Source of the DNA: Elusimicrobiota bacterium
GTDB taxonomy: Bacteria > Elusimicrobiota > Elusimicrobia > UBA1565 > JACRDR01
Assembly: GCA_026388115.1 (NCBI GenBank)
Contig: JAPLKK010000017.1
Location: forward strand, 15,667 to 79,666
Length of the DNA: 64,000 bases
Direction of reading: 5' to 3'
The translations under genes were made by a program, and so were the position numbers. A model generated the notes under the pieces. It ran no database searches. It worked only from the letters and a program-made list of their open reading frames with translations, and was not told the DNA's origin. Positions 2 through 54,310 of the stretch are shown here, one piece after another; position 1 is the stretch's first letter, and each line of letters opens with the position of its first letter.

Positions 2-3000
2 AACCCGAACGGCGGGTTCGTCACCGTCACGGGCTCGAGCCTCACGTCGCTGACCGCCTACAACAATAAGTACTTCGCCGGCGGCGCGGATGGGCGGGTC
101 TATGTGGCCACCGACGGCGTCACGTGGAGCGCCGCCAACGGCGGCGTGGCGTTCGCGACGACGCCGATCCAGACCCTGGCCGCGTTCGACGGAAGGCTGT
201 ACGCCGGCGACGCGACGGGCCGCCTGTACGTCAGCACCGAGGGCAGCGTCTGGATGGTGACGGAGAGCGGCTATCCGATCAGCGGAAGCATCTGGAGCCT
301 GGCGCCGTTCAACGGCAAGCTCTTCACCGCGGACAATATCCTGGCCGGCAATATCTACCAAGTCACGCCGGTCGCCGCCTCCTTCTCCGCCGGCGCGGGC
401 GACGGCACGACGTTGAGCCAGACGCTGAGCGCGACCAACCTCAACCTCGTCAACTCGACGAACACGGCCTCGTGCGCGGGCTTCATGCCCTGCGCCGCGA
501 CGAACCAGGTGATCTTCACGGCGAGCGACCTCGCCGGCAACGTCTTGCGCGCGGGTCCGTTCGCGATCCAGGTGGACGCGACGACGCTGCTCGCGATCTC
601 GACGCCGATCTTCCCGGCCAACGGCGCCTACGTGAACGTCCAGCCGAACTTCGACTGGATCGCTCCCAGCACGACCACGGTCGCCGGCTTGCCGCCGAAC
701 ACGATCTATAACTTCCAGGTCGCGCAGGGCGACCCGTCCTTCCAGCCGATCAGCATCGTCATCAACGTCTCGACGCCGGCCGTGGTGACGAGCACGGTCG
801 TGCCGATGGCTTACGGCGCCTACGTCTCCACCTACGCCCTCGCCAACAACGCGACGTTCTACTGGCGCGTGCAGATCGTCAACGGCATCTACGGCTCCCA
901 GAGCGCGTGGTCTCAGACCTCCAGCTTCGTGACCGCCTTCACCCCGCCGGCGCAGACCGGCGCCTTCCTGAGTTGGGCCTCGACCGGCGGCTTCATCGCC
1001 GAGGTGCAGGTCAACGGCCTGGCCACGGGCGTGACCGCGCAGGTCTCCGTGCAGGATCCGATGGCCGGCCTGGTCGTCTCGACGAACGTGCTGGCCTTCG
1101 CCGGCAACGGCCACGACTTCGCGGGCGGGACCGGCGCGTTCGGCGTCATTTATTCCACGAACTCGGGCCAGACCTGGGTGGACGCCTCGACCGTGACCGT
1201 GGCTAACGGCGGCTACGCGATCGTCGCCTCGAACCTGCGCGCGCTGACCGTGTTCAACAACGCGCTCTATGTCGCCGACGGCAACGGCAGGGTCTACTCG
1301 AGCCCCGACGGCGTGAGCTGGGGCGCGACCAACGGAGGCGCGACCGTCGGCGCCGGCGCCATCCGCGCCATGGCGGTCTTCAACGGTCGTCTGTTCGCGG
1401 GAGACAACACCGGGCGGATCTGGGCGAACAACGGGGTCTCGTGGAGCCAGTCCAACAACAGCCAGGTGGTCGGCACCGGGATCGCGGCCATGACGGTCTT
1501 CAACGGCAACCTGTACGCCGGCGACGGCTCCAGCCCCGGCCGGCTGTACGTGAGCACCGACGGCAACTCCTGGAGGATGGTCCAGGCGGGCATCGGGCCC
1601 TTGGGCACCAGCGGCATCCAGTCCTTGGCCGCGTTCAACGGCCGGCTCTTCGTCGGCGAGCAGGGCATCAGCGCCGCCGCCAGGATATTCTCCTCGGTGG
1701 ACGGCAGCACCTGGCCGTCGAACGCGGTGGCCTCGCTGGGCGCCGTCAACACCAACATCGGCTCGCTGGTCGCGTTCAACAACAAGCTCATCGCCGGCGA
1801 CCAGGGGAACCAGAAGGTGTACGTGAGCACCGACGGCAACTTGTGGAACGCCGGCGTCATGCTCGCGCCCACGGCCAGCAACATCAACGCCCTCACCGTC
1901 TTCAACGGCAAGCTGTACGCCGGGGATTCGCTCGGCCGCCTGTACGTGAGCACCGAGGCGAGCACCTGGCTCGTGACCAACGGCAGCTTCCCGATCGCCG
2001 CCGCCGGCGCCGGCATCCAAGCCTTGGTGCCGTTCAACGGCAAGCTGTACGCGGCCGACAGCGCCGGCTTCGTGTATCAGATGACGCCGACCAGCATGAC
2101 GCTCTCGGGCGCCGACGGCTCGACCGCCTCCCAGGTCCTCGCCGCCAACGCGATGAACCTCGCCAACTCGAGCAACACCCAGACCTGCAACGGTGTCTGG
2201 CCCTGCGGCGCGACCAATCAGGTCCTGTTCACCGTCGTCGATCGCGCGGGCAACGTGGCCAAGTTCGGCCCGTACGCCGTCCAGGTGGACGCGAACACCG
2301 GCCTGGCCGTCTCGGCGCCAAGCCTCCCGGCCAACGGCGCCTACGTGACCACCGGCACCGTGAACTTCGACTGGACCGGCCCGAGCACGGTGACCTTGAG
2401 CGGCCTGCCGGCGGGGACCTCGTACTTCCTGCAGGTGTCGAGGAACGACCCGTCGTTCGCCGGCAACATCGTCGTGGCGATCACCACGCAGGCCGTTCCG
2501 ATCGTGAGCACGACGATGCCCACGGCCTTCGGCGCCTATTACTCGACCTATACGTTGGCCAACAACGCGACCTACTACTGGCGTGTCGCGACGATCAACG
2601 GTACCTACGGCACGGTGAGCCCCTTCTCGCAGACCTACAGCTTCGTGACCGACGTCGCGCTGCCCGTCAGCTCGGGCCCGTTCACGAGCATGGCCCCGGG
2701 CGGAGCGGTGGGCGAGTCCCAGATCAACACGCTGATCGCGAACGTCACGGCCCAGATCGCGCTGTCGCAGGCGGTCAGCGGCTTGGCCGTCTCCACCGGC
2801 GCCGTGGCCTTCGCGGGCGACGGGCACAACTTCCCGGGCGTCACCTCCGGCTTCGGCGTGATGTACTCGACCAACGCGGGACAGACGTGGATCGACTCGT
2901 CGCAGGTCACGGTCGCCAGCGGCGGGATTTCGCTCGGCGGCTACGCCTTGCGCGCCTTCGCGGTGTTCCAGGGCCAGCTGTACGCCGCCGACGCTAACGG

Positions 3001-28400: not shown

Positions 28401-31400
28401 CGGCACCTTCACCGCGCTGTCGGGCACCGCGGAAACGGGCGTGCTGTCGCTCGCGTACTTCGGCGGCTACCTGTACGCGGGCACCCAGGGGACGGCGCGG
28501 GTGTACCGCTCTCCCGACGGCCGCAACTGGTACCCGGTCTACGCCTTCGGCGGCAACAGCGCGGTGCCGAGCCTCGCGGTCTTCAACGGCCAGCTGTACG
28601 CCGGCACCAGCGGCGGCATGTCCGGAGGCCGCGTGTTCAGCTCGCCGGACGGGACGCAATGGTCGTCGGCCTATGCCCCGGCGGGCGTCGCGAGCATCAG
28701 TGCTCTGGCGGCCTACGACGGCCGCGTCTACGCGACGCTGGATGACGGCTGGATCGCGGCCTCGACCAACGGCGTCAACTGGGCGAAGATGGCGCTGTTG
28801 CCCAACGGAGCGGCCACCGCGCTGACCGTGTTCAAGGGCAAGCTGTACGCGACTTGCGGCGGCGCCTATCTATGCTCGAGCTACGGCGGGACGACTTGGT
28901 CGTCGACCCAGCGCTTCAGCAGCTTCACGGTGCTCGACGCCCTGGCCTCCTTCAACGGCCGTCTCTACGTCGGCGGCGACGGCGGCATCGCGTCCGCCCC
29001 CGACGACCTGACCTGGCCGTGGCGCTTCGAAGTCTGGACGGGGGGCGAGACGGTCGCGAGCTTCGGCACCGTCGGTGGGCGGCTGTACGCGGCCACGGCG
29101 CAGAGCGCGGCGCTGTATGCGGTCATCGACAGCGGCCATTGGGCGCAGGTCTTGTCCGGGACCGGCGAGTCCGACATCGCCGCCTTGCAGGCCTTCAACG
29201 GCAAGCTGTACGCCGGCACGCTGCCCCACGGCTTCGTCCTCGAGCTGAGCCCCTTGGCGGCGCTCATGCCCGGCGGCGACGGCGCCACCGGCGTGCAGTC
29301 CTTGCGCGCCTCCGGCTTGACGCTGACCCAGTCCACGACGACGGCCCTGTGCGGCGGCGCCGTTCCCTGCGGGGCGACCAATGAGGTGCGCTTCACGGCG
29401 GCGAACATGGCGGGCAACGTCCGCTTCGCCGGGCCCTACGCGGTGCTCATCGACACCGTCATCGCCACGGCCCGGCCGATGCTGGTCGAGCCGGTCGTCG
29501 AGGGCTTCTCGCTGAAGGTGCCCGAGTTCCGCTGGACGGTGAGCACCGCGGTCTCGATGGGCAACCTCACGGGCTTCGAGTTCCAGCTGGCCAACGCCCC
29601 CGACTTCATCGCGCTGCTGTGGGCGCAGCGCACGATGGACCGGGCCTTGACGTTGCCCTTCTATCTCGGCGAGGGCGGCAAGTATTACTGGCGCGTGCGC
29701 GCCTTCGACGTGGCCGGCACGACCTCCACCTTCTCCGACGTGTCGACCGTGTTCATCGACACCTTCCCGCCGATCGGCAACAGCTTCGCGGCGTTCACCT
29801 CGACCGGACTGGCCGTGCCGGAAGGCACTCTCATCGACCTGGCCAGCGGCGTAACGGCCCAGCTGACGGTGCAGGACACGGTGAGCGGCCTGCGGCTCAG
29901 CGGGCCCGGGCCGGCGGCCGTCATCCCGGGGACGGCGCTGTTGTGGCGCTTCGACGAGGGGACCTACTCCACGGCCACGTCGAACTCGGCGTGGCCCGGG
30001 CAGAAGGTCTATGACAGCGGGCCTTGGGGCAGCACGGGCGCGGTCGCCGGCTTGCCGGTCTGGGTCAACGGCCGCTTCAACAAGGCCCTGCGCTTCTCGG
30101 GCACGGGAGCGGACTGGGTGTACGGCATCTGGCCCTTCCTGTCGCTGAGCAGCCCGACGGTCGAAGCCTGGATCAACACGCTGAGCACCAGCGGCTACGT
30201 CCTCTCCTCGCAGGGCGGCGCCTACTCGGTGTTGATCGGCTCCGCCGGCTTGAGCGCCGGCGACATCGGCGCCATCTTCAACACGGTGCTCGTGGACTGC
30301 GGCCGTCGCGTCGACGACGGGGGCTGGCACCATGTGGCCGCGACGGACGACGGCGCGGACCTGTCATTCTACCTCGACGGGGCGCTGTGCGGATCCACGC
30401 CGGCGCCGGCGAGCTTGCCCGCGCCGGGCACCTTGGACGTCGGCGTCAACATCGACGGCAGCGGGGCCTTCAGCGGGGTCATCGACGAGGTGCGCATCAT
30501 CGACCACCCGCTCGGCGCGGCGGAGATACTGCGCGACGCCACCTTCGGCGTCCCCTACGCGGCGGCGTTCTCCACCAACGCCGGCCGCAGCTTCCAGCTC
30601 GTGACCTCCACCTATCCCGTCACATCGACGTCGCCGTACGTGTCGGTGAGCGGCGCCGACGGCGCGACGAGCCCGCAGGCCTTGCAGATCTGCAATCTGA
30701 CCCTCACCCAGTCGACGAACACGAAGACCGGCGCCCAGGGGACCAACCAGATGGTCTTCGTGGCGAGCGACCGGTCGGGCAACCTCGCGAAGTTCGGACC
30801 CTTCACGATCCTGGTGGACTCGCTGATCGGCCAGCCGACCGCCTACTACCCGGCGCCGGGGAGCTGGGTCAACAGGCTCTCGCCCGCGTTGACCTGGGCC
30901 GAGGCGAACGCGCTGCCGCGCCACGAGGTCCTGCTGTCGCGCGACAACTTCCTGACCCTGGTGATGGACTCCACCACCGCCAACAGCGACATCCTCCTTT
31001 CGGGCTATCCGACCAGGCTCACGCTGGCGCAGGGCGGCACCTACCAATGGAAGGTGAGGGCGACGGGCTTGACCGGCAATAAGTCGCTGTACTCGGCGGC
31101 GAACCAGTTCACCGTCGACGCCGTCGCGCCGACGGCCGGAGGCTTCGGGACCTACAGCTCGACCGGCGCCTTCCTCGACCAGACGCAGTGGAGCAACCGG
31201 TACGGCGCCAACACCGTCCAGGCGCGCTTCCAAGACACCGGGCCGAGCGGCCTGGCCATGTCCACCGGCTCCTTCGGCGTGATGTACTCGACGACCGCGG
31301 GGCTCAATTGGGTGGACTGGTCCCAGCTCGTGTCGACGCTCGCCGTCCAGGGCGCGACGGCGGTTTCCGCTCTCGCGTCCTTCGACGGCTCGCTCTACGC

Positions 31401-34400
31401 GGGCTCCTCGGGCAACGGGCAGGTCGTGACGAGCGCGGACGGCGTGTCCTGGACGCCGGCCTTCGGGTTCCCGGGCCAGAGCGGCGTCTTGAGCCTGCAG
31501 CCCTTCGCGGGCCAGCTTTTCGCCGGCGTCTCACCCGGCCATCAGGTCTGGGCCTCGGCCGACGGGGCCAGTTGGGCCCAGGCGTTCGACACCGGCGGGG
31601 GCAGCGCGGTCGAGAGCATGGTCCTGTTCGACGGCAAGCTGTTCATGGGCACCGACAACAACGCTTCGATCTACTCCTCGGTGGACGGCTCGAGCTTCAC
31701 GCTGGCCGCCGCCATCGGCGGCCAGACGGACGTCCTGGCCTTCGCGGTCTTCGACGGCCACCTCTACGCCGGGACCGCGGGCGGCAACGGGGCGCAGCTG
31801 TGGCGCAGCCCCGACGGCGCGCGCTGGCAGCTGGCCTGGCCGCCGGCCGGCAACACCACCGGCGAGACGCGCGTGCGCAGCCTCGCCGTCTTCAACGGCA
31901 AGCTTTACATGGGCACGGCGCCCGGCGGGCTGATCCTTGCCTCCGTCGACGGCCTGACCTGGCCCGGCACGGCGCTCTCGGGCACCGGCGCGACCGACGT
32001 CCCGGCGATGACGTCGACCAACGGCAAGCTGTACGCCTCCCTGGCGGCGCCCGGCGGCATGCTGTACGCCACCGCCGACGGCGTGAACTGGCGGCTCACC
32101 CTGAGCGGGACTTCCGACAACGGCTTCGCGAGCCTGACCTCCTTCAACGGCGGGCTGTACGCCGGCGGGAGATCGAGCGGCTGGGTGTACGCGATGCCGC
32201 CCGTCGTCTCCGCTTTCACGGGCGTGGACGGCTCGATCGGCGTGGAGACGATGACGGCGACGGGCCTCGCCCTCACGCAATCCGCCGACGGTACGAGATG
32301 CTCGGGCGGCGTCGGGTCGTGCGCGGCGACGAACCAGGTCCTGTTCTCGGCGAGCGACCGCGCGGGCAACGCGGTGTCCTACGGGCCCTACAGCGTGCTC
32401 GTCGATTCGTCGGTCCCGCAGCCGGTCATCGCTGCCCTGACCGCGACCTCCACGGACTCGGTCCGGGTGGACCTGTACCCGGTGCCCGACCTGCTGTCCG
32501 GGACGTCCGACTACCAGTACTACCTCTCGGGCGTGTCCGACTTCTCGGACGCCGTGACGACCACGCCCTTCGTGACGACCTCGAGCTACACCTTCCGCGG
32601 CCTCGGCGAGGCGACGACCTATTATATCCGCGCCGTCGCCCGCGACAGGGTGGGCAGCGTCTCGCCGTACTCCGTCCTCGCCGCCACGATGACCGACGGC
32701 GTGCTGTACTCGTCGTACACCGATATCACCTCGTCTTCGGCGTACCAGTCCACCGACCAGCCGATGCTGCGTCTGATGCTGTGGACCGAGGTGGGGCGGA
32801 CCGCCCTCCTGAACCGGCTCGAGGTCCACATGGACACCGCCGCCAACCCGGCGGCGCCCTTGTCGTCGCCCCTGGGGGCGGGCAACGACGCTGATATCCT
32901 CATCGCCAAGCTGTACGCCGACGCCCAGGGCTTGGGCGTCTTCGACTCGCACGCGGTGCAGTTGGGCGAGGCGCCGATGTCGAACGGCCGCGCGATAATC
33001 GACCTGAGCGGCAACGTCCAGGCGATCCAGTCCTCCACGCGGACGTACTTCGTCGTGTACAAGGTCGCCGACGCGGCGGCGATCAACGACCGGCTGGACG
33101 CGGTGCTCCTCGACGACAACGCCCTCGGCTTCGCGAACTCCTACCGGGCCCTGGCGGCGTACTCCGTGTCCTCGCTCAACACGTATCCGGTCATCTCCAG
33201 CGGCACGGTGGTCGTCGACGGCCCCAACAACCTGTACGTCGACGCCCTGTCGGTCGCCCCGCAGACCGCGGCGCCGGGCCAGTCGGGGATCCCGATGATG
33301 CGGCTGCGCATGAACACCGACCACGGCACGAGCGCGCTCGACCACGTGGTCTTCGATGTGACCGGCTCCGCGGTGGCGTCGACGGACGTGGCCTCCATCG
33401 CGATCTATCGCGACGACAACGGCGACGGCGTTTACGAGCCCGGCATCGACGGGCTGGTCACGTCGGGCAACGACCTCTTCAGCAACGCCGTGGCGAGTGT
33501 GGCCTTTGTGACCTCACTCCATGTGCCCATCTCCTCGCGCACGATCAACTCGGGCACCCAGGACTATTTCGTCCTGATCAACATGGCGCTCGGCGCCCAG
33601 CCGAGCGACCTGGTCGGCGTCTCGGTGACCGCCTCGAGCTCCGTCGTGACGGTGGGGCCGGACACGCCGATCCTGTCGGCGTCGCCGCTCTCCTCCAGCC
33701 AGGTCCGGCTGTCTTTGCCCAACAGGCTCTATCTGAGGACCAGCTCGGTGGCCCCGCCCTCGGTCAAGCAGGGACAGAAGTACGCGGTGCTCATGACCTC
33801 CATGAACGTCGTCTGCGGCCTGCCCGCCTGCGCCAACCCGGGCGCGACCACGGTGACCGGCCTCCAGGTCAACCGCACAGGCACCGCGCAGGACGGCGAC
33901 GTGGCCGCCGTCGAGGTCTGGAAGAGCGCCAATCCGGGCTCGCCCTTCAACCCGTCGGCCGACTATCCGCTCGGCACCGGGGCGTTCGTCGGCGGCACCT
34001 CCTTCGTCGCCTTCTCGACGCAGACGCTCACGAGCCCGACGACGTCGGTGTTCTTCATCGTCTATACCTTGAGCGTCAACGCCAACGCGGGCGCCACCGT
34101 CGGCGCGAGCCTGACCAACAACACCTACGTCACCGTGACGAACCCCGACACGACGGTGACGGGCGCCTTCCCGATGCCGACGGTCTCGACGACTTCGTTG
34201 ATCGCCCAGACCGTGAACAAGCTCCTGGTCACCAACTCCCAGGACGTCACCGTCGCGGCCCAGTTCCTCCAGGCGCGCGCCGACCTGCCGCTGCTGCGGC
34301 TCGACGTGCACGCCGACCAGAACACCGTCTCGTGGACGGGCCTGACGCTCCGGAGCACCGGCACCGCGATGGACTCGGATATCGCGGCCGTCAAGGTCTA

Positions 34401-37400
34401 TGCGGACGCCAACGGCAACGGACAGCTCGACGTGGGCACCGATACGCTGGTCACCAGCGGCAACGACCGGTTCACCAGCGGGTTGGTCACCGTGGGCTTC
34501 ACGCAGTCCCAGGTCATCGCCGCGAGCACGCAGACGTTCTTCGTCTCTGTGGACATTCCGGCCACAGCCATCCCCGGCGATACCTTCGGCGTGGTCGCGC
34601 TCTCGAGCGGCAGCCTCATCGTCGTCGCGCCGAACACGGTCTCGACGACGAGCGTCTCCTTCCCGCTCAAGACGACGCCCGTGCCGATCCAGCAGTATCC
34701 CAACATCATCACCGCTTCGACGGCCTCTTTGGCCCCGGCCGCGATCGACCCGTCGCAGACCAACGTGGGGATGCTGGCCCTCACGCTCAAGACCAACGTT
34801 TCGAACGCGCGCTGGTCGAAGCTGCTCCTCGATCGCGTCGGCGGCCTCGACGCCGACGTCAAGGAGGTCCGCGTCTATTACGACGCCAACAACGTGGGCT
34901 CATGGGACTCGAGGAACGCGAACGCGTATCTTCTCGTCACCTCGACGGGCCAGAGCTTCGGGCTCAAGGGCATCCAGGGTCAGGTGAGCTTGAGCATCGC
35001 CCTGCCGCCGTCGCAGCCGGTGAACTCGACGCCGAAGACGTTCTATATCGTCATCGACATAGCGAACGGGGCCTTGCCGTCGGACTCGATCGCGGTGCGC
35101 ATCCTCAACGCGAACTACCTCACGGTCGACGCCCCCAACACCGTCGCCGCCTTCTCGGCGCAGTCCGGCGCGTCCGTCGTGAACCAGCAGGCCGCGATGA
35201 TGACGGTCGTCGCCTCCACCGGCGTCCTGCCCGCCGTCGTGCGACAGGGCGACTTCAGCGTGCCGTTCGCGCGCTTCGATCTGCAGATGGACCGCTACAC
35301 CGCGCTGTGGACGAAGCTGACGGTCACCGAGGGAGGCACGGCGGCGGACGCCGACGTCAGCAAGGTCAGGCTGTATCTGGCCGCCAGCTCCAGCGAAACG
35401 ACGGTCCAGCCGTTCAGCGACCAGCAGGTGGCCGCGGGCACCTTCGTCTCGGGCCAGGTCATCCTGACCTTCCAGCTCCCGCAGGTCATCTTGTCGACGA
35501 GGACGTTGACGTACTTCCTGACGTACGACATCTCGCCGGTCGCGCAGGCCGGGGTGCTGGCCGGCGCCACGATGAGCGGCCCGGGCTCGTTCGTGCTGGC
35601 CGCGCCCAACGGCGTCAATCCCACCGGCTTCCCGATCCACTCGGGCCTGGCGCTGATCCAGCCGACGGTGACGGGCGTGCTGGCCAGCTTCCAGGACAAG
35701 GCTCCGGCGGGCCTGAAGCAGGGGGCCACCGCCCAGGTGATGATGAGCCTGACCCTTCAGACGACCTCCAACGAGGCCCTGTGGTCCTCGCTCGTCGTGC
35801 AAAAGACGGGCACCGCGCCGGACGCCGACATCCACGCGGTGCGCCTCTTCGTGGACGCCGACGGCAGCGGCGTCCTCAAGCCCGGAGACGCGGAGCTGAC
35901 CTCCGGCGCCGACCGCTTCATCAACGGCTCGGTGACGCTGGCGTTCAACACGCCGCAGGAGATCAGCCCGACGCCGAAGCGGTACCTGCTCGGTCTCGAC
36001 GTGGACCTCCACGCCTCGCCGACGGACACCGTGGGCCTGGCGATCCCGTCGCCCTCCTACTTCGGTCTCGTCGCGCCGAACTACGTCATCAACAGCGGAT
36101 TCCCGCTGCAGTCGTCGAGGATACCGGTCGCCAAGCTCCCGGATATCCTCGACGTGACCTTCACGGACCTGGCGCCGACGGGGGCCAACGAGGGCTCCGA
36201 AACGCTGATGGCGCGGTTGCGGCTGCGCGCCGAGCGCGACAACGCCGTCTTCACGAGCTTGCGCCTGCTCAAGATGGGCTCGTTGCCCGACGTGAATGTG
36301 ACGCAGGTGCGCCTGTATCTCGATGCGAACAACAACGGCGCGGTGGACCCGCAGGACGTGCTCGTGGCGACGGCCGCCTTCTCCAACGGCATGGTCGCGT
36401 TGAGCACGTCGAACGCGATCCTCACCTCGACGCAGACGTACCTGCTGACCTGCGTCCTCGACCCCGGCGCCGCGGTCGGCGCGACGCTGGGCTTGCGCGT
36501 GCCGGACAGCACCTACGTGGGCGCGGCCTTCCCGGACACCCTGTCGGCGCCGGCCTTGCCCTTCTCGACCATCCTCGTCAACGTGCTCGACGCCCGCACG
36601 CCGTCGAAGCCCGTGGTCACGGTGCCCGGCGGGTACTGGGCCGCCTTCGACAACCTGCCGTTCAGCTGGACCTCCCAGGTGGCGCTGGGCTCGATCATGG
36701 ACGTGCAGTACGCCGTCGGCACGGCTTCGACGATGACCGATGTCCTGGCTTGGCAGGACCTGCCGCCGTCGCAGGCGGACGTGACCATCGCCGGGCTCAA
36801 CCTGCAGAGCGGGATCACGTACTTCGTGCTCGTCCGGGCGATCAACGTCATCGGAGGCGTGACGTTCGTCAGCCCCATCGGCGTGTCGCAGGGAGTGCTC
36901 ATCGACTATCAGATCCCGCGGCCGCCCGTGCCCTTGGTCAGCGTGAGCGAAAACGCGGTGCGCATCGCCTGGCCGGCCGTGACGACGGCGGTCGACAGCT
37001 CGACGCTCCCGTCGGGGATCATGGGGTACCTGGTCCAATACCGCACGGGAGCGAGCCCCGTCTGGATCAACGCCAAGACCCAGCTGGCGGTCCCGTCGTC
37101 CATGGCCTTCGGCCCGGCGGCCGCGTGGGCCGCGCGCAAGGCGGCCCAGAACGGCGTCGCGCCGGCGGCGGTCGCGCTCTCGTCGGCGGATCTCATCACC
37201 AACACCAGCTACAATTTCGCTCCGCCGGCCGGCACGGTCTACCTTAAGGCGAGCGCGGTCAGCAACTCCGGACAGATCAGCGCGGACTCGCCGGTGCAGA
37301 AGGTCCAGGTCGGCGCCCTGCCGAAGGGCGGCATCACCAACGTCAGAAACTACCCGAACCCGTTCGACTCGCGCACCGGGGTGACGACGATCAACTTCAC

Positions 37401-37614
37401 GCTGAGCACGGACAGCGACGTGACGATCCGCATCATGACGGTCTTCGGCCAGCAGATCCGAACGATCCACTACAAGGGCTCGGCCGGCTCGGGCAACGAC
37501 GTCCCGTGGGACGGCACCGACGACTCGGGGCGAAAGGTCTCCAAGGGCATCTACCTCGCGGTCATCGAGGGCGGCGGCGCGAGGGTCGTCCAGAAGGTCG
37601 GCATCATCCATTAG
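8953..37614 (+). CDS. Giant cell-surface repeat protein, main portion (9553 aa). Contains Asp-box/BNR beta-propellers, FN3-like domains, five LamG-like domains, nine C-terminal Ca-binding-like repeats, two FN3 domains and a C-terminal FlgD-Ig/Por_Secre_tail-like sorting domain. The same frame is open from about 8707.
   Basis: Uninterrupted 28.6-kb ORF with strong periodic protein repeat structure. Recognisable motifs include the Asp-box S/T-x-D-G-x-T-W, FN3-like TYYWRV, LamG_3-like W.FDEG...DEVR.F.RALSA.EI, and the C-terminal NYPNPF...IY.L..PWDG.D..G..V.KGIYL tail. The stop codon TAG is at 37612-37614. Confidence 0.9.
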   Translation: MPGTMTGSDGTLAAQTLTMTGLNLANSSNTVVCGGFAPCGATNQVIFTASDLAGNVVKLGPYSILLDATTAVAYSTPAAPGLAGFVNVQPNFNWVAPSTPIAAALPPSSAYILQVSNNDPGFSNANLVINISTPISGVGVSLSTAVSPPLSAYVSSFTLTNNTTYYWRVVTLNGGFGWYGPYSSTFSFVTDFSAPTQNGVFTTLSPTGATLTEAQVNTPATSSVTAQIGVQDTISGLAVSSTAVAFAGDGHNYTGAMGGYGVVYSTNAGQSWIDFSSITASRRYDGTVTFGSQLYSFAVYKGALFVSDANTGYLYYSPDGNIWTQVGASQIVPGGLSKPLAVFNGRLFAGDGANGMIYWTAGDTSSWSTANGGVPVGQTIRALAQFSDRLVAADGTNGHIYVSTTGDTWATSQGGQAVGIGAMPALAAYNGQLYAGDSKGNIYFSADASTWTKSNNGLVVGSSISAFAAYNGRLFAADGLNGRVYATSDGVSWSTVNGGVQVTTAPTIGVAALASFNGRLYASAVTGTVSVSTAGGSWWMLNNGYPISPTGGAFWALAPFNGNLVAADAGSVYVIAPVSATLGGADGTGAVQTLTATGLALVNSTRSVVCGGVAPCSATDQVIFTATDRAGNAKPFGPFAVLVDTLTQTLVSTPTFPANGAWVNIQPNFDWIGPSTTPASGLPPGSSYYLQVSNNDPAFAPGNIVISVSTQEYLSATGTSVLASTSLPTAQSGYISSFTLTNATTYYWHVLLGNSVLGTKGPWSQTYSFVTDFAGPAQAGAFLSSSPVLGWIGETQVNPLSNGVTVQVGVQDLLSGMAVSTGSLPFAGDGHDYAGVTAGYGVIYSTSAGQTWIDFSTVTAAAVYTAGNAVTPRLLALAVSSGTIYAAYADNNLPKFYVYHSADGAVWTANNTPSFSYAPQALVPFNGKIFAGFADGSIYYSLNAGTNFSQARPGLTGGLAPIGSNINALVVFNGKLYAGDNNGQVYVSTSGDAGWSATQGGSALSSNGIASLAAFAGRLFAGDRGGRVFATVDGSTWTLMNAGVAVGSNLGSLAAYDNRLFAGDATNGNIYVSTDGGRSWRATNGAVPPTGSAISALSSFSGKLYACDSAGRVIVSTEGYSWMTLNSGYPITGSLSYPAYGLAPFNGKFYVAASSRVFQITPVTANLSGAEGSTAVQTLTASSLRLVTSTTTATCGAAMPCGATNQVLFTASDRAGNAARYGPYAVLVDSTIAVAISTPVYPANQSYVNLQPNFNWNGPSTTTVYGLSQGSAYYLQVSQNDPTFSMGLVISISTPIVNTPQISVSTSLPIAPGAYLSTFTLADNATYYWRVAVANAMDGMFSAWSTSFSFVTNFTAPAAAGVFYSMSPGGQLFGETQIIGIQNGVTAQITVQDANSGLAVSTLNFTGDGHDSVILTVPFGVMYSTTSGQQWIDFSAVTPSNPGVARLYNLTVYNNELYAVDGGGVLYRTVDGAAWYPGINNNWNASVRSMVGFKSAASSTLRLFAGDSNGKIYSSPSPPTQGFATVFSGGSSIGTLATFNGRIYAGDLKTGRIYVSTSGDANAWSATQGGNAVSTTGIQALSTLNGRFFAADKTGSVFVSVDGTTWTLGNIGGAPVGSSITALAPFNGLMYAADAITGKIYSSPDGNTWTTANQGVQVTTSPNVGLQALAVMDGKLYAGDSGGNVWVTVDGSTFTAAYPTPVAGNIGGLAPFNGKLYAADSGNGNVAQLSPVATALGGADGTNAAQVLTARGLNLANSGTVFTCAGVAPCLATNQILFTASNRAANAAKIGPYAILVDAITPVVSLSLPANGTYLNVQPNFNWLGPSTMTAVSLSPGTSYYLQVSADPTFNPANILVSISSPVLPSAGQAISTMAITSDGAYVSTYTLNGATTYYWRVATNSGLYHAVGAFSSTFTFITDFAPPYSSTASFASVSSSGGALAEAQFNDTASGVSAQLAVQDDVALAVSTAAMSFAGDGHDSGLSAGGFGVMVSTNAGATWTDWTVPASSVAVAAPVQAFAVFGGKLYAGGAGSNLYATADGLGWTTKTVATCGGGGTINALAAFRGKLFAGCGGTHGISSDGTSFSAFLAPGKILSFASFNGRLYAGADSQQVSMSTDGAAWWQFSLPLGQTQNSSLAVFRGRLYAGTDSAATRVWHSVDGSTWSKTAGGSAGGAPPAMAVFNGRLYVGGSADTTIRASVDGVNFVPVFTAPFAAGSSNMAAMTVFNGKLYVLDGANKALLWTADGYRWFTSALAVTDAALNALASFNGSLYIGGSSNLYRLQALPAVLAGPDGTTSPQTLSASSLSLAQSSVTTVCNGVYPCAATDQLVFTASDLAGNTALFGPFAVLVDSTSPVAISTPAFPLNGMHVSGQPRLYWLGPSTSVAAGLQPPAAYYLQVAKNDPAFAAGNLVVNIATPVVTSPGDLTANSHYVSTYTLLDNTTYYWRVRAQSGLGTASPWSKAFVFATQFTTPTLSGPFVSNSTGALIPETQFHVLAAGVTAQLTVQDPGGLAFDFVPANRIGTWHFEEAAGALSTDLSGNGNIATLSSPAMWASGYLGTGVAANGNWVDVATPTVAAWSGLTAMAWVYVPSAGLGVVRSSQTVLAGRQFRLEYKVEYRSVGFYADVDPVTGGCSIDEGPAVPLQAAAGTWNHVAFVMDPVNLVNSIYINGVLSRTCSGNPVPGDSSFRFGEDGLSGIGLADAMSGSIDEVSLFSRTLPQPEIAGEMNRKLGFWVYYSTNAGSQWNLVASTAPGNGPYLGSYGVNGSVGPLTVSVAGLSLIQSTNALTCGAVAPCGATNQVKFVVSDLAGNVLSAGPYAILTDSTALSAVPALSYPANGANVGLQPNFDWMGPSTKTAVGLPPGAAFLLQVSQNDVTFAPANVVVSMSTPCIVASTYVPTADATYISTYTLVDNATYYWRVAVQDPVLGTQSPWSSTFSFVLDLTPPAQTGAFTSIDGGLNNLPETTFNTLSAGVTAFITVQDAASGLAVSNTALPLSGDGHDGPASAAGFSVMYSTTAGRLWIDVSTMIVANGGLAVGAKIGALATFGGKLYATDAAGARVYSSGNGGVSWTTVNLPAATTLGPIAVFAGKIYVGDTTTGMIFSSANGLTWTAAAGGAPVSACGTVRSLAVFLNKLYAADNCGKVYLSTDGNGWGIGNNGAAVGASIGALAAFNGKLYAGDANGNVYVTLRGIVWTPTNGGNPVVGSVIALAMFDGRLFAAGAAGDLAFSADGVEWPAVNGGVPVTNSFAALTAFNGKLYGADPATGRLYASPDGNLWVVLNSSAPVGAALGALVPYNGSLYAGDSANGKVYQLAPVPASLAGADGTAAAQALSALALNFTFSTNTQVCGGVQPCGATNQLIFTASDRAGNVTAGGPFAMLVGTPVNSATPTLHVPMDMGYVNVTQPVLSWLHPSTAAYPGLTIFHLEVSADPSMSPLLVLVSTNVGFGVPAVTYPLSSVVLPAATTYYWRVRGETFSGVVGPYSAVRSFQTVLSPPALTSFVHLNSMGAPLNEYQASDLALGVTAQVTAQDGQTGLNLYGTPDTTAVAFYPFEDLVSSAARNAFNNGNPAVLMGGAVPAPGRWGVGVALDGASGTLRVSDAPNLDVFDRITVEAWIKPAAPVTADTTFVRKAAANGTSGWALEYLGGQLAFWTANGGAANCSAGNAACAPVYLNGGEWYHLVGTLDGATLSLYLDGVLVSSRNVTTGPGEPHAPIYLGSSQGTGRFFAGTIDDVRLFYEGRGSAVVLQDFRSPTSPVAVFSSDAGNTWSIVSTTYPVTAGMPFLAVGGSQGTTGAQAFQLVNFNVVQSTTAAVGAAATNQVKFFASSVGGYANTAGPYGVLYDAVANIAIDTPTSPANGVYVSSPSPTFVWNAPNLAGVTLYELRVSADPSFSSLVINNSTPAVTGVAVGTYSAVEVLGPATTYYWQVRSRTTLNRTGPWSIPYSFVTDFTPPGLLNFNTVGSTGAVFIETQVQVSTAVVADLTVFDGLAGLSAAAGFSASFSTNAGQGWNVVTSTVGGAGPYLNVTWPEGGNAGIFSLVNMPVGQSTSTAVCGGVPQPCGATNQVVFYLRDRAGNLSVGGPYAILADTTAAVAISSPAAPAAGAWSGLNPGTAFVWSTPSTYTLSGLQSFSLEVSSNASFAPLSFIVSTPVVTGALAASYVSTQMLPEGTTIYWRVRVLDSLGNFSPYSAVSTFLVDSGSPLPLSYGVVSSTGGILTEADPLGSFTVSVALSAQAAVSGLPATGASVIVSTDGGAHWSTFGSTLTVLSSTLEAGVISAKVFNGSAYAGTQGNARLFRSPDGRSWPPVAAFSNNVSVNSLEVFNGRLYAGTGGGLAGGRVYSSADGNVWSPAFTPSGASSVAALAAFNGRIIAAYDAFVAGSTNGVSWSKLATMPNGPATALAVFNGKAYAACGPYVCSSYGGAAWSSTPRFSGSSNLSAIAAFNGRIYVAGDIGVQSTAGDDAWPWRSELSVPGETFSSLAVADGRLYAGSAQNGYVYATVDGTSWARVLSGTGETGMSALQAFNGKLYAGTAPNAKILELSPYAAVSGVDGAVTPQALIATGLAVAASTSTALCGGDWPCSANNQTRFAVSNEAGNVAFLGPYAVIVDTVIALARPLLVEPTVEGMTLLQPEFRWTVSTAIAAGNLTGFEVQLAGAPSFNTLLLDQPVANMFLPSPLILAASGVYYWRVRSFDVFGASSSFSDAATVIIDTQAARGSQFLTYNNLGVTFPEGGLMDLATGVTAQLNVQEGVSGLERAGPGPLAPVSGTLLLWHLDEGAGSTVGDAGTWGNGGTIYGAPVWTNGRFGKALRLPAPASASNYLAAASQPSLSAANVTLEAWINTQSTQAAVLQSQGGAYGITIGMGGAAGDVGATFNGVSADCHRRVDDGAWHHLAATCDFGSARFYLDGALCANVGAPSSMPSAGALSVGLRFDGTQPYAGLLDELRVVNRALSADEIYRDATYGAPYTAFVSTNGGQNFLVVATTFPVTPGAPYVTLTGVDGSTSTEVLQARNLSLVQSTTLSSGALATDQIIWRVANRAGAITAIGPYAVLVDSTGLAALPKLTYPAHGAYSNVQPNFAWVGPSTTTAAGLPASSGVVLQVSSNDPAFSLASMVVNISTPVVVASTVVPTADGAYFSTFTLTDATTFYWHVGVLNAALGTYGPWSQTFSFVTDLTKPVQTGSFSSFNSVQASLGETFWNDLSAGVTAQITVQDGGSGLALSAGALAFAGDGHDGPGLSGGYSVMYTTMAGQQWVEWPTFTVGTVGTSAIDSLAVFKGKLYAGYGTGGKIYSSPNGAFWTQVFAPGVSDSVNTLAEFNGRLYAGAGGSSALVYASSNGVNWSQVFASADAAVQSLAAFNGKLYAGTASNGNIYASTDGVIWAQVFAGNSSPLSALAAFNGRLYAGDAASVYASADGVTWTAVSLPGGVGPAAFAAFNGKLFAGTNGGGTNHIFSSPDGVAWTPVLSLAGEGVTACAVTNGKLDCATGAGNLYASPDGTVWAQTLSSAMTNQGPIYALAAFNGKLNAGAGTGNVIQLAPVAAAISGTDGTLASQNLSSMLNLTLSTNTAVCAGSWPCGATNQVLFTASDRAGNVTRSGPFALLVDTPVDSATPTLHLPMDMGYASQPSPVFTWVHPSTTAFRGLSVFHFELANSASMSPLLVNVATPVVFGMPAPSYALAAALAPATTYFWRVRAETFAGVLGPYSSTYSFQTAFSSPAASNFVHFSSTGGALTALQDSDLSVGVTVQITAVDLQTGLSFWGSPDATAMLFYPFEDVVNPPALNAFNGVNPLSFVGGAAVGPGRWGKGAVLNGANGTLTTPNTPGLQDLTGSITLETWIKPSSLVSNDTTFIRKGGNVFGWSLEYLGGLLVFWLGNGAGPTCGVNAVCVNAVLAGGEWYHLAGAYDGTAMSLYVDGKLMAVTPYSSGGGFNSDALYVGSYQGTSRFFGGVIDDVRVFAAGRTAAQVLYDFRSPTPPLALYSTSAGNAWSVVSATYPAYPGLPFISLTGLQGTTSAQPVQLVGFSVVQSTSVLPGAGATNQVKFLFADVAGNAVVAGPYGMIFDSVASVALDTPSAPGNGVYVSSPSPNFYWQAAGLAGVTLYEMRASIDPAFGPLSISISTPATTGVFIGTYNAVEVLAPSTTYYWQLRSRTTLNRTSAWSTAYSFVTDFVPPALATYTTVGSYGAVLTEAQTQISTSVAVRIQAFDGLAGLAGSGFRVVYSSNAGASWSLVSSTAPSAGPYLQVTWQDGQSSGTLSLVNLFLGQSTSTTICGGAAPCAATNQVLFYINDRGGNLSIAGPYAILADTTAALAISAPAVPAAGAWVTANPGAAYVWNTPSTSTLSGLAAFYLEVAANPSFNPLVFTVSTPAVPGALAAAYVSTHTLAEGATIYWRVRSLDSLGNFSPYSAPSTFLVQSGAPNPLAYGVVSSTGGILTEADALGNYTAAVTLAAQDSLSGLSAGGASVVVSINAGNDWYALAGTFTALSGTAETGVLSLAYFGGYLYAGTQGTARVYRSPDGRNWYPVYAFGGNSAVPSLAVFNGQLYAGTSGGMSGGRVFSSPDGTQWSSAYAPAGVASISALAAYDGRVYATLDDGWIAASTNGVNWAKMALLPNGAATALTVFKGKLYATCGGAYLCSSYGGTTWSSTQRFSSFTVLDALASFNGRLYVGGDGGIASAPDDLTWPWRFEVWTGGETVASFGTVGGRLYAATAQSAALYAVIDSGHWAQVLSGTGESDIAALQAFNGKLYAGTLPHGFVLELSPLAALMPGGDGATGVQSLRASGLTLTQSTTTALCGGAVPCGATNEVRFTAANMAGNVRFAGPYAVLIDTVIATARPMLVEPVVEGFSLKVPEFRWTVSTAVSMGNLTGFEFQLANAPDFIALLWAQRTMDRALTLPFYLGEGGKYYWRVRAFDVAGTTSTFSDVSTVFIDTFPPIGNSFAAFTSTGLAVPEGTLIDLASGVTAQLTVQDTVSGLRLSGPGPAAVIPGTALLWRFDEGTYSTATSNSAWPGQKVYDSGPWGSTGAVAGLPVWVNGRFNKALRFSGTGADWVYGIWPFLSLSSPTVEAWINTLSTSGYVLSSQGGAYSVLIGSAGLSAGDIGAIFNTVLVDCGRRVDDGGWHHVAATDDGADLSFYLDGALCGSTPAPASLPAPGTLDVGVNIDGSGAFSGVIDEVRIIDHPLGAAEILRDATFGVPYAAAFSTNAGRSFQLVTSTYPVTSTSPYVSVSGADGATSPQALQICNLTLTQSTNTKTGAQGTNQMVFVASDRSGNLAKFGPFTILVDSLIGQPTAYYPAPGSWVNRLSPALTWAEANALPRHEVLLSRDNFLTLVMDSTTANSDILLSGYPTRLTLAQGGTYQWKVRATGLTGNKSLYSAANQFTVDAVAPTAGGFGTYSSTGAFLDQTQWSNRYGANTVQARFQDTGPSGLAMSTGSFGVMYSTTAGLNWVDWSQLVSTLAVQGATAVSALASFDGSLYAGSSGNGQVVTSADGVSWTPAFGFPGQSGVLSLQPFAGQLFAGVSPGHQVWASADGASWAQAFDTGGGSAVESMVLFDGKLFMGTDNNASIYSSVDGSSFTLAAAIGGQTDVLAFAVFDGHLYAGTAGGNGAQLWRSPDGARWQLAWPPAGNTTGETRVRSLAVFNGKLYMGTAPGGLILASVDGLTWPGTALSGTGATDVPAMTSTNGKLYASLAAPGGMLYATADGVNWRLTLSGTSDNGFASLTSFNGGLYAGGRSSGWVYAMPPVVSAFTGVDGSIGVETMTATGLALTQSADGTRCSGGVGSCAATNQVLFSASDRAGNAVSYGPYSVLVDSSVPQPVIAALTATSTDSVRVDLYPVPDLLSGTSDYQYYLSGVSDFSDAVTTTPFVTTSSYTFRGLGEATTYYIRAVARDRVGSVSPYSVLAATMTDGVLYSSYTDITSSSAYQSTDQPMLRLMLWTEVGRTALLNRLEVHMDTAANPAAPLSSPLGAGNDADILIAKLYADAQGLGVFDSHAVQLGEAPMSNGRAIIDLSGNVQAIQSSTRTYFVVYKVADAAAINDRLDAVLLDDNALGFANSYRALAAYSVSSLNTYPVISSGTVVVDGPNNLYVDALSVAPQTAAPGQSGIPMMRLRMNTDHGTSALDHVVFDVTGSAVASTDVASIAIYRDDNGDGVYEPGIDGLVTSGNDLFSNAVASVAFVTSLHVPISSRTINSGTQDYFVLINMALGAQPSDLVGVSVTASSSVVTVGPDTPILSASPLSSSQVRLSLPNRLYLRTSSVAPPSVKQGQKYAVLMTSMNVVCGLPACANPGATTVTGLQVNRTGTAQDGDVAAVEVWKSANPGSPFNPSADYPLGTGAFVGGTSFVAFSTQTLTSPTTSVFFIVYTLSVNANAGATVGASLTNNTYVTVTNPDTTVTGAFPMPTVSTTSLIAQTVNKLLVTNSQDVTVAAQFLQARADLPLLRLDVHADQNTVSWTGLTLRSTGTAMDSDIAAVKVYADANGNGQLDVGTDTLVTSGNDRFTSGLVTVGFTQSQVIAASTQTFFVSVDIPATAIPGDTFGVVALSSGSLIVVAPNTVSTTSVSFPLKTTPVPIQQYPNIITASTASLAPAAIDPSQTNVGMLALTLKTNVSNARWSKLLLDRVGGLDADVKEVRVYYDANNVGSWDSRNANAYLLVTSTGQSFGLKGIQGQVSLSIALPPSQPVNSTPKTFYIVIDIANGALPSDSIAVRILNANYLTVDAPNTVAAFSAQSGASVVNQQAAMMTVVASTGVLPAVVRQGDFSVPFARFDLQMDRYTALWTKLTVTEGGTAADADVSKVRLYLAASSSETTVQPFSDQQVAAGTFVSGQVILTFQLPQVILSTRTLTYFLTYDISPVAQAGVLAGATMSGPGSFVLAAPNGVNPTGFPIHSGLALIQPTVTGVLASFQDKAPAGLKQGATAQVMMSLTLQTTSNEALWSSLVVQKTGTAPDADIHAVRLFVDADGSGVLKPGDAELTSGADRFINGSVTLAFNTPQEISPTPKRYLLGLDVDLHASPTDTVGLAIPSPSYFGLVAPNYVINSGFPLQSSRIPVAKLPDILDVTFTDLAPTGANEGSETLMARLRLRAERDNAVFTSLRLLKMGSLPDVNVTQVRLYLDANNNGAVDPQDVLVATAAFSNGMVALSTSNAILTSTQTYLLTCVLDPGAAVGATLGLRVPDSTYVGAAFPDTLSAPALPFSTILVNVLDARTPSKPVVTVPGGYWAAFDNLPFSWTSQVALGSIMDVQYAVGTASTMTDVLAWQDLPPSQADVTIAGLNLQSGITYFVLVRAINVIGGVTFVSPIGVSQGVLIDYQIPRPPVPLVSVSENAVRIAWPAVTTAVDSSTLPSGIMGYLVQYRTGASPVWINAKTQLAVPSSMAFGPAAAWAARKAAQNGVAPAAVALSSADLITNTSYNFAPPAGTVYLKASAVSNSGQISADSPVQKVQVGALPKGGITNVRNYPNPFDSRTGVTTINFTLSTDSDVTIRIMTVFGQQIRTIHYKGSAGSGNDVPWDGTDDSGRKVSKGIYLAVIEGGGARVVQKVGIIH
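16480..17140 (+). other. LamG/concanavalin-A-like lectin domain 1 (Laminin_G_3-like) inside the giant protein.
   Basis: Translated segment GTWHFEEAAGALSTDLSGNGN...GTWNHVAFV...IYINGVLS...SIDEVSLFSRTLPQPEIAGE. This matches the LamG_3 pattern W.FDE..G....D.SGNGN....W..G..G.AL.FDG...L.DE+..+.RALS..EI. Confidence 0.65.
19590..20210 (+). other. LamG-like domain 2.
   Basis: VAFYPFEDLVSS...RWGVGVALDGASGTLRV...ITVEAWIKP...EWYHLVGTLDGATLSLYLDGVL...GTIDDVRLFYEGRGSAVVLQDF. Confidence 0.65.
23270..23850 (+). other. LamG-like domain 3.
   Basis: LLLWHLDEGAGSTVGDAGTWGNGGTIYGAPVWTNGRFGKALRL...VTLEAWINT...AWHHLAATCDFGSARFYLDGAL...LLDELRVVNRALSADEIYRDAT. Confidence 0.7.
26265..26880 (+). other. LamG-like domain 4.
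   Basis: AMLFYPFEDVVNPPALNAF...RWGKGAVLNGANGTL...ITLETWIKP...EWYHLAGAYDGTAMSLYVDGKL...GVIDDVRVFAAGRTAAQVLYDF. Confidence 0.65.
29935..30545 (+). other. LamG-like domain 5.
   Basis: ALLWRFDEGTYSTATSNSAWPGQKVYDSGPWGSTGAVAGLPVWVNGRFNKALRFSG...PTVEAWINT...GWHHVAATDDGADLSFYLDGAL...VIDEVRIIDHPLGAAEILRDAT. Confidence 0.65.
32700..36600 (+). repeat. Nine tandem in-frame repeats of roughly 140-150 aa in the C-terminal third of the giant protein. Each carries an EF-hand/FG-GAP/dockerin-like DxNxDG..D loop, which predicts Ca-binding beta-sandwich-like modules of unknown family.
   Basis: Recurrent pattern A.W..L.L...GT..D.DI..V.VY.DANGNG.LD.GTD.LVTSG.D.F..G.V.L.F...Q.I....+TYF...DI...A.PGDT.G. Examples: YRDDNGDGVYEPGIDGLVTSGNDLF, YADANGNGQLDVGTDTLVTSGNDRF, FVDADGSGVLKPGDAELTSGADRF, YLDANNNGAVDPQDVLV. 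Confidence 0.6.
36600..37300 (+). other. Two fibronectin-III-like domains that precede the sorting domain.
   Basis: PSKPVVTVPGGYWAAFDNLPFSWTSQ...GITYFVLVRAINVIGGVT and PVPLVSVSENAVRIAWPAV...GYLVQYRTG...YNFAPPAGTVYLKASAVSNSG. Confidence 0.5.
37320..37614 (+). other. C-terminal sorting domain of the FlgD-Ig-like / Por_Secre_tail (T9SS-type CTD) kind.
   Basis: PKGGITNVRNYPNPFDSRTGVTTINFTLSTDSDVTIRIMTVFGQQIRTIHYKGSAGSGNDVPWDGTDDSGRKVSKGIYLAVIEGGGARVVQKVGIIH. This is the canonical YPNPF..T.I.F.L.....V.I.I....G..V..L....AG.....WDG.D..G..V..G.Y shape of about 90 aa at the extreme C-terminus. Confidence 0.7.
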
Positions 37615-37644
37615 CGTCCGAACCGGCCGCGCGCCTCGAGGCTC

Positions 37645-37727
37645 TTGACAGCGCAAGCAAGATCGAGCCCCAGTCAAGGCCGCAATCGATTTAAGCTGCA
37701 ACAACAACACCTTTTTTATTAAAAAAT
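37645..37727 (+). promoter_or_regulatory. Intergenic candidate promoter region for the downstream PorV-like operon. It has a TTGACA hexamer at 37645-37650 and an AT-rich tract ttttttattaaaaaat at 37712-37727.
   Basis: This is the only AT-rich stretch in about 38 kb. I do not see a convincing -10 at 17 bp from the TTGACA, so the exact promoter is uncertain. Confidence 0.3.
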
Positions 37728-37775
37728 CTCAGAATGTCTTCGTGATTAGGGGGGCTATCCCGTTAAACTTGTGGT

Positions 37776-41884: not shown

Positions 41885-41887
41885 GCC

Positions 41888-46222: not shown

Positions 46223-46237
46223 GGCGGGGCCGCGCCG

Positions 46238-51330: not shown

Positions 51331-51334
<4 letters not shown>
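50696..51334 (+). CDS. trpF: Phosphoribosylanthranilate isomerase.
   Basis: [38 protein letters not shown]...QLHGSE. Overlaps trpC by 4 nt. Confidence 0.8.
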
Positions 51335-52392
<1,058 letters not shown>

Positions 52393-52396
<4 letters not shown>

Positions 52397-54245: not shown

Positions 54246-54269
54246 TCACACCGTTCTGCTTGTCGTTCT

Positions 54270-54310
54270 CCCTCTCCCGACGTTCGGGAGAGGGCCGGGG
54301 TGAGGGCAGG
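54270..54310 (+). repeat. GC-rich palindromic REP-like element, copy 2: stem ccctctcccg / cgggagaggg with an acgtt loop, followed by ccggggtgagggcagg. Intergenic, downstream of the DAHP synthase gene.
   Basis: Copy 1 tgttcCCTCTCCCcGcGTTCGGGgAGAGGGtaGGGTGAGGG aligns with copy 2 cgttctCCCTCTCCCGaCGTTCGGGAGAGGGccgGGGTGAGGG. Confidence 0.7.

Follow-up and report, generated by a model that had tools for sequence, protein, structure and literature searches.

The stretch of DNA examined here, 64,000 nucleotides of contig JAPLKK010000017.1 (positions 15,667 to 79,666, forward strand) from the Elusimicrobiota metagenome-assembled genome (MAG) GCA_026388115.1 and referred to as the window throughout, is dominated by a repeat-rich region that runs on the plus strand from position 2 to position 37614. 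The question raised by this locus is whether such a region is a genuine gene, whether that gene is intact, and what kind of protein it might encode. We find that it codes for one giant modular protein, in which arrays of β-propellers, linkers, LamG domains and β-sandwich repeats lead to a C-terminal sorting domain. The balance of our analysis favours, although not strongly, a surface-anchored, multivalent adhesin fibre of the type IX secretion system (T9SS) kind.

Coding status and domain architecture of the giant gene

Positions 2-37614 of the plus strand are coding throughout for this one modular protein. The G+C content at third codon positions (GC3) is 0.94 across 2-8968 and 0.95 across 8953-37614, in a window with 69% G+C, and long antisense open reading frames (ORFs) over the gene show the mirror image of this third-position pattern. 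Base 2 already lies inside a propeller (positions 147-263 of the propeller hidden Markov model, or HMM, match amino acids 8-123), with neither a start codon nor a signal peptide, so a first-pass annotation of the same DNA was correct to place the N-terminus upstream of the window. That annotation also described one plus-strand gene of more than 37.6 kb; strand and coding are as it stated, but the region comprises two open frames, with frame +2 open from 2 to 8968 and frame +1 from 8707 to 37614. In a sliding analysis the high-GC3 phase changes only once in 2-37614, near 8.8-8.9 kb. A DNA alignment of eight units places the switch at 8851/8852, where the sequence lacks 55 nt (3x18+1) that seven paralogous units have, directly after '...ctgtacgccgggga' at 8851. 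In a protein alignment with six sister units approximately 18 residues are absent at the switch, across which the protein reads '...AVLNGKLYAG' in frame +2 and then '...SGAAIAVSSVVALSPYNGKLY...' in frame +1. The deletion removes core strands of one blade of propeller 6. The gene as deposited thus consists of the following parts:

2..8851, plus strand: upstream fragment of the giant gene, frame +2, 5'-incomplete, with an out-of-frame read-on to a TGA at 8966-8968
8851..8852, plus strand: frame-breaking lesion, 55 nt missing, the sole frame switch in 2-37614
8852..37614, plus strand: downstream fragment of the giant gene, frame +1, with its stop at 37612-37614

Spliced over 8851/8852, the product is 12,537 amino acids long without its N-terminus, in agreement with the roughly 12,537 codons first counted. 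The first in-frame starts of the downstream fragment are GTG 8953 and ATG 8965, the latter overlapping the upstream TGA, and the 28.7 kb after the break are free of secondary stops. A programmed frameshift can be ruled out here, as a slip could not restore a normal blade when some 18 residues present in every other blade are physically absent.

Using HMMs built from the gene's own units and run along the protein, together with Pfam, we obtained a domain map with 15 seven-bladed DUF6242 propellers, 22 Cys-pair linkers, five LamG domains, eight C-terminal repeats, a final two FN3 domains and one sorting domain. Specifically, each supermodule incorporates, in order; 1) a Cys-pair linker of about 70 amino acids; 2) an FN3-like domain of about 117; 3) a segment that we call d3, of about 84; and, 4) a seven-blade propeller. 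Along the window the protein is arranged as follows:

392..16491, plus strand: regime 1, nine complete supermodules of about 575 amino acids followed by a tenth linker-FN3, with a partial propeller ahead of them at the window start
23-370 (partial), 1292-2089, 3005-3805, 4574-5554, 6311-7261, plus strand: regime 1 propellers, located with the self-HMM
8216-8952, 9895-10683, 11644-12438, 13411-14145, 15232-15798, plus strand: regime 1 propellers, continued, also by self-HMM
16492..32412, plus strand: regime 2, where the five LamG domains are set among linker/FN3 pairs and five propellers
16492-17232, 19573-20316, 23245-23952, 26239-26976, 29908-30648, plus strand: LamG domains, by Laminin_G_3 and self-HMM
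18016-18903, 21685-22560, 24835-25578, 28357-29220, 31273-32196, plus strand: regime 2 propellers, by self-HMM
32413..32808, plus strand: FN3-like domain that follows the last linker and precedes the C-terminal repeats, a weak match (Pfam fn3 E 0.0045; Pur_ac_phosph_N)
32809..36543, plus strand: eight C-terminal β-sandwich repeats with a period of about 160 amino acids (self-HMM, 107-149 bits)
32809-33138, 33295-33669, 33832-34155, 34291-34644, plus strand: C-terminal repeats 1-4, by self-HMM
34771-35145, 35266-35616, 35740-36087, 36208-36543, plus strand: C-terminal repeats 5-8, by self-HMM
36556..37320, plus strand: two FN3-like domains, conserved in orthologues (cfn3x2 HMM), with only a weak Ig-type Pfam match
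37321..37611, plus strand: C-terminal sorting domain of about 95 amino acids (T9SS type A C-terminal domain, or CTD; FlgD-Ig-like), by TIGR04183 and FlgD_ig

The outline drawn by the first-pass annotation is recognisable in this map, although several counts change. Its first regime, running to about 16.5 kb, and the order within it hold, with nine complete units and a tenth linker-FN3 in place of ten supermodules of about 1.7 kb. The second, to about 32.4 kb, contains the five LamG domains described and five propellers instead of four. The C-terminal repeats number eight and not nine, the domain that precedes them being FN3-like, and the closing order of two FN3 domains and then a secretion-sorting tail is borne out. 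Regime 1 units share 43-60% amino acid identity among themselves, and in regime 2 a block of about 2,240 amino acids was duplicated long ago, its two copies sharing 52% identity over 2,268 columns.

The identity of the propellers differs from that first proposed. They were described as seven-bladed Asp-box (BNR) propellers, and the seven blades are indeed present in the AlphaFold2 model (predicted local distance difference test score, pLDDT, 80-94), which separates them from the six-bladed sialidase fold. By sequence, however, they belong to DUF6242 (PF19755), with 65.6 bits for a regime 1 unit and 34.6-60.9 bits for the regime 2 propellers against a cutoff of 29, whereas Pfam BNR PF02012 picks up a single motif, at 16.3 bits (cutoff 27). 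Among the blade motifs of the 15 propellers, 10 are of the canonical SxDxGxTW form and 53 of a shortened SxDGxxW form. The NCBIfam BamI model scores far below its cutoff on the propeller (62 against 370). Foldseek with the propeller model returned generic propellers of 7-8 blades (Ycf48, BamB, WD40) and not sialidases, and thus no functional clue beyond a generic propeller.

The LamG domains match Laminin_G_3 (PF13385) in all five copies, with 50.7-96.3 bits against a cutoff of 27.6 (E 2.9e-13 to 2.6e-27), as had been expected of them. The linkers also conform to their first description, with exactly two cysteines in 18 of the 22 copies; 37 of the 65 cysteines of the whole protein fall in linkers, and the conserved pair suggests extracytoplasmic disulfides. 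The FN3-like assignment is less clear, since some copies match Ig_Rha78A_N (59.5, 48.8 and 29.8 bits, cutoff 27.4) and the others fall below the cutoff, while PF00041 fn3 itself gives E 0.0045 only; AlphaFold2 models the FN3 part with low confidence. The C-terminal repeat is modelled by AlphaFold2 as a β-sandwich (pLDDT 88), whose best PDB matches are Bacteroidota GH33 sialidases (E ~1e-3, TM-score of the query, TMq, 0.5), with a weak Pfam BNR_assoc_N match. The RTX nonapeptide GGxGxD does not occur in the 12,537 amino acids, nor do LPXTG or PEP-CTERM motifs.

Sorting signal, proposed surface fibre and relatives

The evidence for the route of export lies at the end of the protein. Within the last 352 amino acids, residues 266-348 pass TIGR04183, the T9SS type A sorting domain, with 28.1 bits against a cutoff of 23, which bears out the sorting tail first proposed. 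The tail also passes FlgD_ig (32.3 bits, cutoff 27), lines up with the C-termini of the PorU and PorZ models and is near-identical in the relative P0032. The complete orthologues L003, L005, L008, L013, P0028 and P0032 all start with signal-peptide-like sequences. The sole candidate for a T9SS core component in the 64-kb window is a PorV/PorQ-like protein encoded by the neighbouring gene. PorU and PorZ are known to keep their CTD and to sit on PorV/PorQ.

We propose that the giant protein would be exported by Sec, as the signal peptides of the orthologues imply, and that a type-IX-like pathway may then recognise the type A sorting domain and carry the protein across the outer membrane. It would be retained at the surface, plausibly by the PorV/PorQ-like barrel encoded directly downstream, where it could form a long beads-on-a-string fibre of rigid β-propellers spaced by disulfide-stabilised linkers and FN3-type domains. 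The distal half of such a fibre would bear the five LamG lectin-type domains and the cell-proximal stalk the eight β-sandwiches, which resemble the carbohydrate-binding modules (CBMs) of sialidases, an arrangement that would make the protein a multivalent adhesin. Its extreme length goes back to old tandem duplication, within the lineage, of the supermodule of about 575 amino acids and of the block of about 2,240. A giant adhesin, which the first-pass annotation had thought plausible, remains the best reading. That annotation had taken the propellers and LamG domains together to point to carbohydrate binding. Because the propeller is of the DUF6242 family, whose one studied member, Bt3727, has no known ligand, this argument passes to the LamG domains and C-terminal repeats, and any lectin-type binding would come from these and not from the propellers.

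The lack of a ligand for Bt3727 is one of several points that weigh against a T9SS-type adhesin fibre. The Pfam model Por_Secre_tail (PF18962) scores 24.1 on the tail, below its cutoff of 27, and the N-terminus of the giant protein itself lies outside the window. The neighbour scores 64.8 bits (E 1e-17) with the PorV/PorQ family NF033709, below the cutoff of 90, and a PDB sequence search with it gave no match. The linker, FN3 and d3 parts are modelled by AlphaFold2 with low confidence, and we found no literature report of a T9SS in Elusimicrobia. It could also be argued that the protein is primarily a structural coat of the S-layer or sheath type, or a scaffold for glycan-degrading enzymes. 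A very large, repetitive, extracellular protein rich in Ala, Gly, Ser and Thr would be consistent with either, as would C-terminal repeats that resemble the non-catalytic domain of GH33 sialidases. A scaffold sits poorly, however, with the finding that Pfam detects no catalytic domain in any chunk of the protein and with a propeller that falls below the BNR/sialidase threshold and has only generic fold matches. The module copy number, which differs between relatives (from 1 to 15 or more), argues against a coat. Variation of this kind is what adhesin stalks of variable length usually show, in contrast to S-layer proteins that form lattices. We therefore regard both as unlikely and retain the adhesin fibre as the preferred interpretation.

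Relatives of the protein are found almost only in Elusimicrobiota MAGs, and with them we define a family of modular CTD surface proteins by domain grammar together with downstream PorV-like/TPR and HisKA-FliF-FliG genes. Members follow a common plan of signal peptide, [FN3-d3-propeller-linker] x n, 5-8 repeats, two FN3 domains and CTD. The same grammar is present in L003, L004, L005, L008, L012 and L013, and the window protein shares it. The number of supermodules n is 1 in L008, 3 in L003-L005 and at least 8 in L006, which is cut; L012 and L013 are a LamG-rich variant. Complete orthologues have n = 1-3 and lengths of 2,270-4,837 amino acids, while cut ones exceed 6,107. Searched against 1.84 billion representatives, the linker-FN3-d3 profile finds only 76 proteins at E <= 1e-30; among the matches listed, the longest family member has 7,176 amino acids. 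The window protein, at 12,537 amino acids or more, is therefore the largest member seen of a rare family. In a scan of GTDB representatives its relatives have at most 51% identity, exact-protein look-ups returned short Logan contigs only, and a scan of JGI metagenomes found nothing. We also considered P0028 (5,272 amino acids, with a signal peptide) as the missing N-terminus and rejected it, as it is only 46-49% identical. To have called this one of the largest bacterial genes was an overstatement, since published bacterial proteins reach 85,804 amino acids (bioRxiv 10.1101/2023.11.21.568195), several-fold more, and it is the largest only within its own family. A tendency to huge proteins has been described before for the phylum Elusimicrobia (PMC11573180); we found no relevant literature on this family within it.

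Comparison with known systems helps to place these findings. The protein resembles the T9SS type A CTD cargo of Bacteroidota (gingipains; PorU/PorZ) in its CTD of about 90 amino acids that passes TIGR04183, in the PorV/PorQ-like outer-membrane protein encoded next door and in the signal peptides of its orthologues. It differs in phylum, in the score for PF18962 and in a PorV-like protein that is fused to TPR repeats and below its family cutoff. With Bt3727, part of a surface dome on the β-barrel assembly machinery (BAM) of Bacteroides, it shares DUF6242, the pairing of an Ig-like domain with a propeller and, as proposed here, surface exposure, but Bt3727, a small lipoprotein, has a single propeller of six blades, compared to 15 seven-bladed copies per polypeptide here. 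The giant proteins of other bacteria (Omnitrophota, up to 85,804 amino acids; the RCC1-propeller giants of Oscillospiraceae) are likewise above 10,000 amino acids, with amplified propeller modules and a predicted extracellular location, although their domain set and sorting signal are different and the window protein is several-fold shorter than the records. Adhesins of the RTX type that use a type I secretion system (T1SS), such as MpIBP, have a similar long repetitive stalk with distal ligand-binding domains; in contrast, the window protein has no RTX repeats and ends in a T9SS-type β-sandwich instead of a T1SS signal. Giant modular surface adhesins are a known kind of protein, of which this gene would be an extreme example and not a new principle. 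What it adds is a previously undescribed family almost restricted to Elusimicrobiota, whose module number at a syntenic locus forms a natural series for gene growth by module duplication. It also adds a T9SS-type sorting domain with a PorV/PorQ-like partner in a phylum for which no report of type IX secretion was found.

The repeat array and the frame break

Giant repeat-rich genes are a known assembly hazard, and the first-pass annotation had itself raised the prospect that the array was duplicated or chimeric in silico. If units had been duplicated, joined or collapsed in assembly, the true gene would be much shorter or of some other length, and the source MAG does demonstrably carry small deletion defects. 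The divergence of the units nevertheless refutes in-silico duplication. DNA identity between unit pairs is at most approximately 71% and exact repeats in the 37.6 kb extend to 32 nt at most, so that ordinary reads would place every unit uniquely, and Tandem Repeats Finder detects no long-period DNA tandem array. An independent Logan assembly, contig L038 (12.5 kb, run SRR25046533), aligns with positions 29427-41940 of the window with zero mismatches, repeating the last 8.2 kb of the giant gene; the same idiosyncratic unit recurs with 88% identity in a related population (P0079); and orthologues of 8 or more and of 9 or more units occur in other assemblies. The repeat units are old and are not in-silico copies, and an artefactual array is very improbable.

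The frame break at 8851/8852 is a different matter, and here the remainder of the window is informative, as it contains three deletions of non-triplet length: the 55 nt of the giant gene, 92 nt in trpB and 17 nt at 39337/8. The third is directly contradicted by L038, which holds 17 extra nt (ATGGCCATCTTCATTTC) at this point. With these restored, the TPR protein encoded there ends in '...RMPL', the end point of the orthologue alignments, and without them it has a 24-residue read-through. The trpB gene (window 51331-52396, plus strand) misses Pfam PALP profile positions 88-126 and changes frame in an otherwise intact trp operon. An ENA contig of about 95% identity, L039, encodes an intact 385-amino-acid TrpB, from which the window misses exactly 92 nt at 51741/51742, and the NCBI protein numbering of the MAG leaves no accession for trpB.

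It might be supposed that the 55-nt deletion is real and fixed, in which case the locus would be either two genes or a pseudogene that lost its function recently. Its N-terminal fragment would then end up in the periplasm and carry no sorting tail, leaving a remainder of 9,549-9,553 amino acids without a signal peptide that would at best be re-initiated at ATG 8965. The break is, after all, present in the deposited sequence, and this ATG overlaps the TGA at 8966-8968. No protein entry for the giant gene was found in the databases searched, whereas its neighbours (MCX5787166.1 and those beside it) have one, as would be consistent with pseudogene annotation by the depositor's pipeline. Two further observations count against an artefact. 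No independent sequence over the lesion was found, the nearest fragment, P0079, ending 78 residues short of it, which leaves room for a recent real pseudogenisation. Secondly, the family member L037 carries a 1-nt frameshift, likewise in a propeller, so real inactivation does occur in the family. Against a fixed deletion, the 17-nt deletion is contradicted by an independent assembly from the same organism without a single substitution, trpB is a housekeeping gene, GC3 stays at 0.95 after the break with 28.7 kb free of stops, and a downstream fragment without a signal peptide would not work as a surface protein. On this evidence we judge inactivation or a two-gene arrangement to be the less probable explanation, at roughly one chance in a few, and infer that the 55-nt lesion is probably a defect of assembly or of a minor variant. 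The native gene then probably forms one continuous ORF, 12.5 thousand codons long or more. Small frame-breaking deletions in the deposited contig have probably hidden it from protein databases, which shows how giant genes can drop from catalogues.

Some sequence differences at these loci may be recorded separately. The frameshift of L037 (ENA contig k141_1017554), a near relative of L003, is a 1-nt deletion at 12686 in the second propeller of a three-supermodule orthologue; together with the lesions of the window it shows that frame-disrupting lesions recur in assemblies of this giant-gene family. The 5' part of trpB (51329-51743) is only 87.5% identical to L039, compared to 94-95.5% for the flanking genes, which gives a peak of divergence beside the deletion. 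Relative to Logan contig L002, the window has an in-frame 6-nt GGGGCC tandem-copy difference at 43804, in a hybrid histidine kinase gene, and one single-nucleotide polymorphism at 44795, both of which are ordinary strain-level variation.

Neighbouring genes

Downstream of the giant gene lie three further features that may bear on its function:

37776..39410, plus strand: PorV/PorQ-like and TPR protein with a signal peptide, directly downstream; PorV/PorQ-like region at amino acids 37-293, TPR repeats at the C-terminus
39410..41884, plus strand: HisKA/HATPase-FliF-FliG fusion of 824 amino acids, by Pfam matches and hydrophobic segments
45479..46936, plus strand: MotA/PomA-like and MotB/OmpA-like stator pair, by Pfam MotA_ExbB, MotB_plug and OmpA, 3.6 kb downstream of the FliG fusion

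The first of these, whose 3' end is altered in the window by the 17-nt deletion, may be a dedicated partner of the giant protein's CTD. The order of big gene, PorV-like/TPR gene and FliG-fusion gene is conserved in six MAGs at 38-48% amino acid identity. The predicted topology of the fusion is a transmembrane (TM) segment, HisKA/HATPase, a second TM segment, a FliF/YscJ-like periplasmic segment, a third TM segment, FliG_M and FliG_C, and it matches Thermotoga maritima FliG (1lkv) with E 7.5e-21. Judged by sequence, it amounts to a FliF-FliG fusion of rotor-like type, and the phylum that carries it is not known as flagellated. The best NCBIfam matches of the stator pair are flagellar stator models, all below their cutoffs; the pair is flanked by an FkbM methyltransferase gene and trpE, and MotA is also found near the orthologue locus in L003-L005. 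We saw no other flagellar genes among the window genes scanned and found no relevant literature on FliG/MotA-type modules, including the HisKA-FliF-FliG fusion, in Elusimicrobia.

These neighbours hint at an undescribed envelope machine. It is conceivable that the fibre, the PorV/PorQ-like-TPR protein, the HisKA-FliF-FliG fusion and MotA/MotB are parts of one conserved Elusimicrobiota apparatus, in which a flagellar-type rotor-stator would power or regulate the export, movement or tensioning of a surface adhesin. We consider this improbable as it stands; what links the fibre to FliF-FliG and MotAB is conserved synteny, and a functional machine would be a speculative extension of it. Such an apparatus, though made of different parts, would parallel the gliding of SprB on the GldLM/T9SS motor. 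SprB and RemA are gliding-motility adhesins of Flavobacterium johnsoniae. Like the window protein in the reading proposed here, they are very large, repetitive surface adhesins with a T9SS-type signal, an adjoining gene for an outer-membrane partner and proton-channel motor genes nearby. SprB, however, has a type B CTD and a PorP/SprF-like partner, lacks both DUF6242 propellers and LamG domains and is driven by GldLM, whereas the neighbours in the window are a FliF-FliG-like fusion and MotA/MotB-type proteins, a comparison that we draw by description only.

The remaining genes of the window are housekeeping trp and aro genes. A suspected third gene break at 60.6-61.8 kb was ruled out, as this segment holds two separate genes, aroQ and a macro-domain gene. 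Lastly, a Fic/DUF4172/HTH gene at 54246-55782 has a G+C content of 62.5%, compared to approximately 70%, and lies between aroF and aroA, which are directly adjacent in L039; this stretch is probably a small mobile insertion.

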